A stretch of DNA of 47,884 bases from Escherichia phage ZL19, in sequence record OM258170; one strand, written 5' to 3'. The translations under genes and the position numbers were made by a program. Shown one piece after another: positions 4,950 through 5,802 of the stretch; position 1 is the first letter of the stretch; the number at the start of each line of letters is the position of its first letter. The notes below the pieces were generated by a model. It did no database searches. It was not told the DNA's origin and saw only the letters and a list, made by a program, of their open reading frames with translations.

Positions 4950-5127
4950 TTGTAAGCACCACTATTACTACGCATACGAGTCGAAAGTGGAGAAGTCTGA
5001 CATTGATGGGCTTAAACATGGATGGGCTGACACAACTGCGCCATGTATCTTCGTAGGAATGAAAATGGCATTCTACGTTTGCAGTAAGTGCTACAATATA
5101 CTTATCGCGGAGAGGCTAGGTAAATGA
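4942..5127 (+). CDS. hypothetical Cys-containing protein (61 aa)
   Basis: Track ORF 4879..5127 trimmed to ATG overlapping upstream stop; start uncertain. Confidence 0.35.
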   Translation: MNNCKHHYYYAYESKVEKSDIDGLKHGWADTTAPCIFVGMKMAFYVCSKCYNILIAERLGK

Positions 5128-5210
5128 GCGAGTTAACAATCTGGTTTATCGCAGGGCTGATTACTTGGGGTTACTTTTTAATCGCTTAGATGGAGATTGT
5201 CAAAAAGAGC

Positions 5211-5239
5211 TTGCATCACTGACCGGAATTACCTAATAT
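5211..5239 (+). promoter_or_regulatory. sigma70-like promoter TTGCAT-17-TAATAT
   Basis: Hexamers with 17-nt spacer upstream of a ~180-nt non-coding stretch and the tRNA. Confidence 0.45.
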
Positions 5240-5422
5240 TGACCACGTAGAAGACAGCCATCCAAGATGGAACGGCGCACGGAGCGCACTACACGGTAAG
5301 TCCGTTGCTCATTAAGTAGCGTATGCGGCACACCCTTACGGGACTTGCAAGACCTAGCGCAAATAGGCAGATTAACCGGCTGTATCAGGCAGCCCCGGAG
5401 CCGTAACCGGGACTCATTCAAA

Positions 5423-5500
5423 GCTCTGCTAGCTCAACAGGATAGCAGCAACGACCTTCTAAGTCGTAGGTTACTGGTTCGAATCCAGTGCGGAGCGCCA
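5423..5500 (+). tRNA. tRNA-Arg (anticodon UCU), CCA encoded
   Basis: 7-bp acceptor stem GCTCTGC/GCGGAGC, anticodon stem ACGAC/GTCGT with loop CTTCTAA, T-arm ACTGG-TTCGAAT-CCAGT, GG in D-loop; D-arm atypical (3-bp stem, long loop). Confidence 0.7.
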
Positions 5501-5514
5501 ATAAAGGAGTCATT

Positions 5515-5697
5515 ATGTGGGATGTGAAGTTGTCCATTCGCTTAATGGGCCGCTCGTGCAAGAATTGCACTCAAGATTACATCGCGTCAGTTGCCGCAAT
5601 CAGCGCTGAGGATGCGGTAGCGAAAGTAAAGGAGTTGTCGGGCGCTGACCCTGATACCCACAAATTCCTGGTAGCTTACGTTCGTGAGCGAAAGTAA
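5515..5697 (+). CDS. hypothetical protein (60 aa)
   Basis: ATG with AAAGGAG RBS just after tRNA; track ORF 5488 starts at GTG inside the tRNA. Confidence 0.4.
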   Translation: MWDVKLSIRLMGRSCKNCTQDYIASVAAISAEDAVAKVKELSGADPDTHKFLVAYVRERK

Positions 5698-5740
5698 AAA
5701 GTGTTATACCCTCGTTAAGTTTCGTTTCTCTCGTTGTTTT

Positions 5741-5764
5741 AGCCCTCGCTTGAGGGCTTTTTTC
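5741..5764 (+). terminator. intrinsic terminator
   Basis: AGCCCTC-GCTT-GAGGGCT hairpin followed by T-run. Confidence 0.65.
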
Positions 5765-5773
5765 GACTGCATG

Positions 5774-5802
5774 TTGACAATAATATGTAGGTGCATTAGT
5801 AT
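5774..5802 (+). promoter_or_regulatory. sigma70-like promoter TTGACA-17-TAGTAT
   Basis: Consensus -35 with 17-nt spacer, 47 nt upstream of ATG 5844. Confidence 0.6.

Follow-up and report, generated by a model that had tools for sequence, protein, structure and literature searches.

Bacteriophage T4 encodes rnaC (species 1) and rnaD (species 2), two small stable RNAs of 119-139 nt that lie within the phage tRNA cluster beside a tRNA-Arg gene and are processed from a tRNA precursor. GOLLD and ROOL, two structured RNAs of phages and prophages, are often located near tRNA islands and sometimes contain tRNAs themselves; they are 500-800 nt or more in length and adopt complex pseudoknotted folds that assemble into cages (PMC12286853). 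Phage HK022 carries put elements, which span ~70 nt and form two long stem-loops (PMC9378689).

Here we analyzed a locus in which a tRNA-Arg(UCU) gene follows a leader of 178 nt, using as the window the whole 47,884-nt stretch of DNA in which the locus lies. The tRNA half of this finding is real, ordinary and was known before, since the tRNA-Arg gene is already annotated in relatives. What is new is the leader, which its conservation and covariation identify as a new family of structured RNAs in Drexlerviridae tRNA operons.

Organization of the tRNA-Arg operon

Over positions 5100-5560, the window shares 99.8% identity with Escherichia phage vB_EcoS-IME253 (Rtpvirus, Braunvirinae, Drexlerviridae); within the leader, identity rises to 100%. 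The phage is a T1-like lytic coliphage that depends on host RNA polymerase (PMC7718038). A sigma-70-type promoter lies at 5211-5239 (+), with TTGCAT at 5211-5216 and TAATAT at 5234-5239 separated by a 17-nt spacer, and transcription is predicted to start at ~5245 (+). The putative transcript would comprise the structured leader (5245-5422, +), recognized by covariance model and covariation, the tRNA-Arg(UCU) gene with its encoded CCA (5423-5500, +), a 60-aa ORF (MWDVKLSI..., 5515-5697, +) with the ribosome-binding site AAAGGAG, and an intrinsic terminator, located by a terminator scan at 5741-5765 (+), that marks the end of the operon. It is followed at 5774-5802 by the next promoter, which the scan showed to be near-consensus with 10/12 hexamer matches. 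The translation of the 60-aa ORF resembles rtp17 and T1 gp56 and matched no Pfam family; the ORF is kept 3' of the tRNA in relatives, and in the predicted operon it would be co-transcribed with the leader and the tRNA. The leader locus lies ~700 bp upstream of the terminase genes, and throughout the family the leader is always found upstream of an rtp17-like ORF and the terminase genes. We tentatively view 5211-5765 as a small operon for stable RNAs in a T1-like phage, in which the layout is evident and the stability of the RNA products is predicted.

The TTGCAT-17-TAATAT promoter named in the original prediction is present and conserved in relatives. Judged by its hexamers alone it is weak, with 7/12 consensus matches, and it was not listed by a consensus promoter scan; despite this it has been kept in the Braunvirinae relatives. 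Counterparts occupy the same position in ES (TTGACA-17-TACATT) and in the Rogunavirinae (TTGACG-17-TAGTAT). Immediately upstream, a hydrophobic mini-ORF of 21 aa (MSELTIWFIAGLITWGYFLIA, 5124-5189, +) ends just before the leader promoter and is kept in the Braunvirinae. Rogue1 carries a 22-aa version, MTELSIWFLAGMLTWIYFVVMA (L131 418-486), the stop codon of which overlaps the -35 element. The mini-ORF probably encodes a tiny membrane peptide, and in Pfam it gave only a sub-threshold match to DUF6341. We also noted that Rtp, JulesPiccard, Msk and ES have a different short segment (…AAACCAATAATCCTGGGGGATTTATGAAAATTGTAA) 3' of the tRNA (L002 ~1872-1900; L003, L014, L020). This segment carries a Shine-Dalgarno-like GGGGGA, the usual direct ribosome-binding site of the 60-aa ORF is absent, and by eye a 4-codon mini-ORF, MKIV*, can be discerned in Rtp, JulesPiccard and Msk, with a longer frame in ES.

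ARAGORN reported a single tRNA in the whole window, a tRNA-Arg with anticodon tct at 5423-5500 (+), and the Rfam tRNA model RF00005 gave the same gene 55.9 bits, well above its gathering score (29). Both programs therefore agree with the original prediction of a tRNA-Arg(UCU) with canonical acceptor, anticodon and T arms; the T-loop motif GGUUCGAAUCC is present as GGTTCGAATCC, and the 3' end GCGCCA lies at 5495-5500. The predicted 3-bp D-stem and long D-loop also hold, as the Rfam alignment contains one irregular pair, C:C at position 13:22 of the D-stem, which leaves three standard pairs. The emphasis placed on an atypical D-arm was nevertheless too strong, since both predictors accept the tRNA and the gene in Rtp has a regular 4-bp D-stem, making the arm only mildly unusual. 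Ordinary phage tRNA-Arg(UCU) genes are of the same kind as that in the window, the 13:22 mismatch being the sole notable difference, and related tRNA-Arg genes were found in 811 phage records. In both the GenBank and the RefSeq record of IME253 the tRNA-Arg gene is without annotation (window 5423-5500 corresponds to KX130960.1 11634-11711). The annotation is also missing in DTL, BEK2, BEK6, phiA2-1, IME542 and C119, and in BEK6 a reverse-strand hypothetical CDS has been placed over the tRNA.

AGA and AGG codons are common in the phage. In a set of 42 ORFs from the window, all long and free of mutual overlap, AGA occurs at 10.8 per 1000 codons (21.9% of Arg codons) and AGG at 7.3 per 1000 (14.8%), so that together they make up 37% of Arg codons, and the highest counts fall in the long structural ORFs. 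In E. coli K-12, AGA and AGG occur at ~2 and ~1 per 1000 codons, respectively. The phage thus exceeds its host several-fold, a pattern that fits a decoding role for tRNA-Arg(UCU) and agrees with the earlier suggestion that the tRNA likely helps late gene translation by reading a codon that is rare in the host.

Additional tRNA-like elements were seen in some relatives. A 99-nt element lies just 3' of the tRNA-Arg gene in CEB_EC3a, PsgS01F and Sadiya (L009 896-994, L012 895-993 and L133 765-863) and, by alignment, in BEK6. With the Rfam tRNA model the element reaches 39-43 bits, and a long insertion within a tRNA could explain it; ARAGORN missed it in CEB_EC3a and PsgS01F and called it 'tRNA-???' with a two-base anticodon in Sadiya, and the PsgS01F record annotates it as tRNA-Ile. 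In one SRA-derived relative, the leader and tRNA-Arg(CCU) are separated by a weak tRNA-like element (L147 184-255; Rfam 33.9 bits), for which ARAGORN made no call. On visual inspection the element has the anticodon loop CUUUAGG; this would correspond to the anticodon UUA and make it a possible ochre suppressor.

Distribution and conserved structure of the leader RNA

Searches with blastn detected the leader in 88 phage records, which come almost exclusively from Braunvirinae coliphages, and a pattern scan added 12 further metagenome contigs, while four SRA-derived contigs supplied additional leader variants of the TR2/ES type. We built a covariance model, R1, from an alignment of leader sequences (A2). 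In the window R1 detected a single copy at 165 bits, this copy being among its training sequences. The model also recovered divergent leaders at the syntenic position in the Rogunavirinae, with scores of 14-19 bits (E ~1e-4 to 1e-7); 31 Rogunavirinae records contain the leader, among them those of Rogue1, C119, Sadiya, BECP10, phiEB49, Sd1, Sf12 and phiJLA23. In all, ~40 distinct leader variants are spread over the two subfamilies, and relatives' leaders range from 157 to 361 nt, the shortest forms measuring 157-160 nt and the longest (361 nt) being that of JulesPiccard.

Every complete copy of the leader lies directly 5' of a tRNA gene, either Arg-UCU, Arg-CCU or Trp. In all complete copies from the Braunvirinae and the metagenomes this gene is tRNA-Arg (UCU or CCU). 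The tRNA genes after the leader are Trp and Arg, in that order, in Sd1, and Arg followed by Val in phiEB49, which indicates that a small tRNA operon begins with the leader and that the linkage is to tRNAs rather than to tRNA-Arg.

The family does not correspond to a described RNA. The leader is absent from Rfam 15: apart from the tRNA, a cmscan of 5100-5560 at E<=10 returned a single match, a chance one on the opposite strand, leaving the leader unmatched by the models for GOLLD, ROOL, 6S, tmRNA, RNase P, ribozymes and riboswitches, and equivalent scans of the relatives' leader regions likewise gave no leader match. A host-derived RNA was rejected because blastn found no leader match in 5,426 complete E. 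coli genomes. The GenBank records we inspected either leave the leader without annotation or place nothing but 'hypothetical protein' calls over it. Our literature searches yielded no description of the leader, and the genome paper on one phage of the leader family discusses only the tRNA (PMC7718038).

A coding function is also rejected. The ~180 nt had been predicted to hold no credible ORF, and the ~178 nt indeed contain only short ones, including a 27-aa ORF in the window. Indels among the relatives' leaders are not multiples of three, and the 27-aa ORF stops after three codons in the 160-nt forms, both of which show that the leader is not protein-coding; a 40-aa CDS annotated in Rogue1 is not conserved.

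We tested the structure of the leader on the 25 sequences of A2, for which the hairpins P1, P2, P3, P3b, P4, P5 and P6 were proposed. Across these seven helices, 99.3% of alignment cells hold standard pairs, compared to 24-42% in slid controls, in which the 3' partners are shifted by 1-3 columns, although many of the sequences are close kin and such cell counts therefore suggest more independent compensatory events than there were. Eleven pairs are changed on both sides (0-2 in the slid controls) and the covariation score is 0.241 (<=0.043 in the slid controls). For four of five measures, none of 500 shuffles reached the observed value, and for the remaining one, the count of further pair types, 83 of 500 did so. 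Most of the double changes in A2 are carried by P1, P5 and P6, and P1 by itself occurs with seven distinct paired stems. At three helix positions we found G-U pairs, which would be C-A mismatches if read on the other strand, indicating that the structure belongs to the plus-strand RNA. The folding energy of the leader is no better than that of shuffled sequences (z = -0.75), so that the short GC hairpins of the original prediction are borne out by covariation without support from folding energy. That prediction was right about the hairpins and the missing ORF, but it undervalued the leader, which forms a covarying family across two subfamilies.

The first 13 nt of the leader are single-stranded, and its 5' end, CGUAGRC, is common to both subfamilies. 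P1 follows at 5258-5270 (+; CCAUC/GAUGG, loop CAA) and covaries among the stems CCAUC, GCCAC, CUAGC, ACCAC, GUCAC, ACGG and GCGG, with an eighth, in e4/1c, containing one mismatch. A terminator-like site reported by the scan at 5276-5257 (-) is P1 read on the opposite strand; it has a weak T-rich tail and is probably non-functional. P2 (5275-5287, +; GCGC/GCGC) has AACG just 5' of it and closes the pentaloop ACGGA at 5279-5283. Its stem covaries among GCGC/GCGC, GCAUC/GAUGC, GGAC/GUCC and GGGC/GCCC, and the pentaloop reads RCGGA in 39 of 40 distinct leaders.

A central three-way element occupies 5297-5347 (+), with its pairings verified in the window. It consists of the tentative helix P3a (UAAGU/ACUUG, 5297-5301 with 5343-5347, +), the covarying P3 (CCGU/GCGG, 5302-5305 with 5325-5328, +), in which GC changes to AU and UG, CG and UA alternate, P3b (UGCU/AGCG, 5306-5309 with 5318-5321, +), in which only one-sided changes occur, and an inserted hairpin (CCC/GGG, 5333-5335 with 5340-5342, +). 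Tentatively, P3a encloses P3 in the window, and the same strands form a simple adjacent hairpin in the Rogunavirinae. P4 (5353-5367, +; CCUA/UAGG) has a compensated stem, which is ACCA/UGGU in Rogue1 and e4/1c with the loop, GCGCAAA, unchanged; P4 is missing from some variants, for example ES.

Towards the 3' end, P5 (GCUGU/GCAGC, 5379-5383 with 5389-5393, +) has three pairs changed on both sides and abuts P6 (CCCGG/CCGGG, 5394-5398 with 5407-5411, +; loop AGCCGUAA), which has two. Elsewhere the P6 stem is GCUGG/CCAGC, CCCGC/GCGGG or GCCGG/CCGGC, with the loop keeping ..C(C/G)GUAA. Tentatively, a 3-bp pseudoknot could join the P6 loop to bases 5' of P5: most variants offer CGG:CCG and Rogue1-type leaders offer CCG:CGG, and only 2 bp are available in the TR2/ES types. 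The leader ends in a conserved single-stranded tail, ACUCAUUCAAA (5412-5422, +), which stops at the predicted RNase P site and whose motif ACUCAUUC is kept in Braunvirinae and Rogue1-type leaders.

The Rogunavirinae leaders, together with the SRA-derived variants, supplied covariation that the Braunvirinae lacked, seen in the stems of P2, P4 and P6, whose loops are kept. Comparison of both subfamilies defines a universal core composed of a 5' domain (P1-AACG-P2) and a 3' domain (P5-P6-tail), which flank a variable middle. All of the features that characterize the family, namely CGUAGRC, P1, AACG, P2 with RCGGA, P5 abutting P6 with ..CGUAA, the tail and the position 5' of a tRNA, were located in the window. 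Insertions in relatives are whole extra hairpins, all of them in linkers, and this includes the second P5-P6 module of JulesPiccard and A110b, which arose by duplication. In Rogue1 (L131 617-658) and e4/1c, a unit of ~21 nt is duplicated in tandem (GCCGGACCTTTCCGAGGATTG / GCCGGACCTTCCGAGGATTG), a further instance of modular growth. We also came across an isolated match to P6 and the tail, CCCGG-AUGGUCGUAA-CCGGG-ACUCAUUC, in an unrelated 52-kb viral contig (L136 7116-7142), where an ORF starts 14 nt downstream of it and no tRNA is nearby; it could be a real relative of the 3' module or a chance match. Apart from this contig, a wider search for P6 plus tail returned matches that look like chance hairpins or opposite-strand terminators.

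Possible functions of the leader RNA

The original prediction had left two options for the leader, a processed precursor or a separate small RNA, and these are still the two leading explanations. We lean, with some reservation, towards the leader being a released, stable RNA that acts in trans and is recognized via its invariant loops, with its start, release, stability and role all being predictions. Host RNA polymerase would start at the sigma-70 promoter and transcribe the leader, the tRNA-Arg(UCU), the 60-aa ORF and the terminator. As expected from standard tRNA biology, RNase P would then cut at 5422/5423 and free both the tRNA and the leader. The freed tRNA would decode AGA, a codon far commoner in the phage than in the host, and the freed leader would accumulate as a separate RNA that resists exonucleases, a property predicted from the placement of P1 near the 5' triphosphate end and of the stacked P5-P6 at the 3' end. 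In trans, the leader could serve as a protein-binding scaffold or decoy, with recognition occurring through the P2 RCGGA, P4 GCGCAAA and P6 ..CGUAA loops together with the conserved A/U-rich linkers.

Several properties of the family favor a trans role. Conservation includes the P2 loop, at a distance of more than 130 nt from the tRNA, modules have been gained and duplicated in the way of binding sites, and T4 rnaC/rnaD and GOLLD/ROOL provide precedents. Insertions confined to linkers and a duplicated P5-P6 module are typical of a modular protein-binding RNA. A more far-reaching version of this idea, which we consider rather doubtful, is that the leader represents an unrecognized class of trans-acting phage RNA that uses RNase P for its own 3'-end formation and manipulates a host or phage protein through the invariant loops; it might, for instance, contribute to host takeover, act as a decoy against host defences or soak up a factor that targets tRNAs. 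In this version, the palindromic GCGC in the P4 loop may also allow the leader to self-associate.

The strongest competitor is a purely cis-acting leader that aids tRNA production and is discarded after cleavage, for instance by insulating tRNA folding, by presenting the RNase P site via the tail or by protecting the precursor from 5'-end-dependent decay. We judge this to be on the unlikely side, yet nearly as likely as a trans role, given the absolute linkage to tRNAs and the fact that the best-conserved 3' domain abuts the cleavage site. Indeed, the tail and the tRNA linkage fit a purely cis role equally well: the leader always lies directly upstream of the first tRNA, whichever tRNA that is, its most widely conserved domain (P5-P6 plus ACUCAUUC) adjoins the cleavage site, and the element resembling P6 plus tail directly upstream of an ORF in L136 hints at an effect on downstream sequence. 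Against a cis role, tRNA leaders of E. coli are usually short and without conserved structure, the invariant P2 loop is more than 130 nt distant from the tRNA, the single-stranded first 13 nt are poorly suited to 5' protection, and in relatives the 5' domain can be separated from the 3' domain by an additional 50-200 nt of hairpins.

An improbable alternative is that the leader modifies RNA polymerase as nascent RNA, in the manner of put, nut or boxA-like elements, and thereby suppresses pausing, Rho-dependent termination or intrinsic termination along the untranslated operon. Its position suits such a role, as P1-P2 starts at most 15 nt from the predicted start and is conserved along with the promoter-proximal TAACCA-CGUAG, and HK022 putL likewise lies just downstream of its promoter and forms two stem-loops, although put stems are much longer, with ~70 nt in total (PMC9378689). 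At 5306-5315, TGCTCATTAA matches the rrnB boxA TGCTCTTTAA at 9/10 positions; this boxA-like string is, however, missing from the Rogunavirinae leaders and in the Braunvirinae undergoes a recurrent C-to-A change that extends P3b. P2, with its GC stem and pentaloop, is reminiscent of boxB. Read-through does not seem to be needed in this operon, since the terminator at 5741-5765 is followed by a near-consensus promoter (10/12). An rrn-type boxA was rejected, as the match to the consensus GCUCUUUAACAA is not family-wide, sits inside the P3b hairpin and is absent in the Rogunavirinae.

It is very unlikely that the leader is functionless as RNA, either as the remains of decayed former tRNA genes or as a DNA-level site such as pac, an origin or protein-binding repeats. 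The proximity of the tRNA locus to the terminase genes would suit a DNA site, and extra degenerate tRNA-like elements in the same operon of some relatives would suit decay, but the tRNA model matches nothing within the leader, even at E<=10, and GC skew is unremarkable at its position. Moreover, selection on RNA pairing is indicated by the compensatory changes and by G-U pairs that fit one strand only. Least credible of all, and close to negligible, is a CsrB/RsmZ-like sponge for CsrA: P2 (C-ACGGA-G) looks like the hcnA hairpin to which RsmE binds and several GGA triplets lie at stem-loop boundaries, but none of 15 variants is enriched in GGA over dinucleotide-preserving shuffles (P = 0.06-0.76), with only 3-8 GGA per RNA and a loop GGA in P2 alone, which is lost in DTL.

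A number of further readings were considered and rejected. An antisense regulator of phage genes is not indicated, as a search of the phage genome for leader targets found no antisense match of at least 11 nt and the complementarity consisted only of 10-mers, as expected by chance. There is no GC-skew feature at the leader that would mark a replication origin. Pairing of GACUC in the leader tail with GAGUC at the ribosome-binding site of the downstream ORF would involve 5 bp only and is not conserved in TR2- and Rogue1-type operons. The likeness of P5 to a type I-F CRISPR repeat is lost in variants with a covaried stem, and an apparent likeness to RNase P RNA motifs found no counterpart in Rfam, where RNase P was not matched.

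Relation to other tRNA-linked phage RNAs

T1-like coliphages are common and genetically easy to handle; they include the Rtp and Rogue1 groups as well as JulesPiccard (Bas03 in the BASEL collection). Since the leader is short, has defined invariant loops and occurs in phages that grow on E. coli K-12, deletion, loop-mutant and pull-down work would be straightforward.

Among described elements, HK022 put, rrn boxA/boxB and lambda nut are, like the leader, promoter-proximal hairpins of nascent RNA. Elements of the put type bind the beta' zinc-binding domain of RNA polymerase and suppress downstream terminators, and the leader resembles them in its position right after the promoter, with stems that measure 4-5 bp. 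GOLLD and ROOL differ from the leader in size and complexity, as the leader family spans 157-361 nt and consists mostly of simple hairpins. With respect to T4, rnaC and rnaD lie 3' of tRNA-Arg whereas the leader lies 5' of it, and rnaC ends in a tRNA-like T-arm, which the leader does not. Homology between them was rejected: nhmmer with --max found no match between rnaC/rnaD and the leader at E<=100, R1 returned only noise from the tRNA region of T4, where its top match reached 4.6 bits (E = 2.1) and lay on the non-coding strand, and the shared strings AACGGCGCAC, GGTAAGTC, AGTAGCGT and TAACCGGG are suggestive by eye only. Like the leader, rnaC and rnaD are missing from Rfam.

To our knowledge, none of T4 rnaC/rnaD, GOLLD and ROOL has a known function. 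The leader falls within this known but unexplained kind of tRNA-linked phage RNA, to which it adds a compact and tractable member, and studies of the leader could therefore show what RNAs of this kind do.
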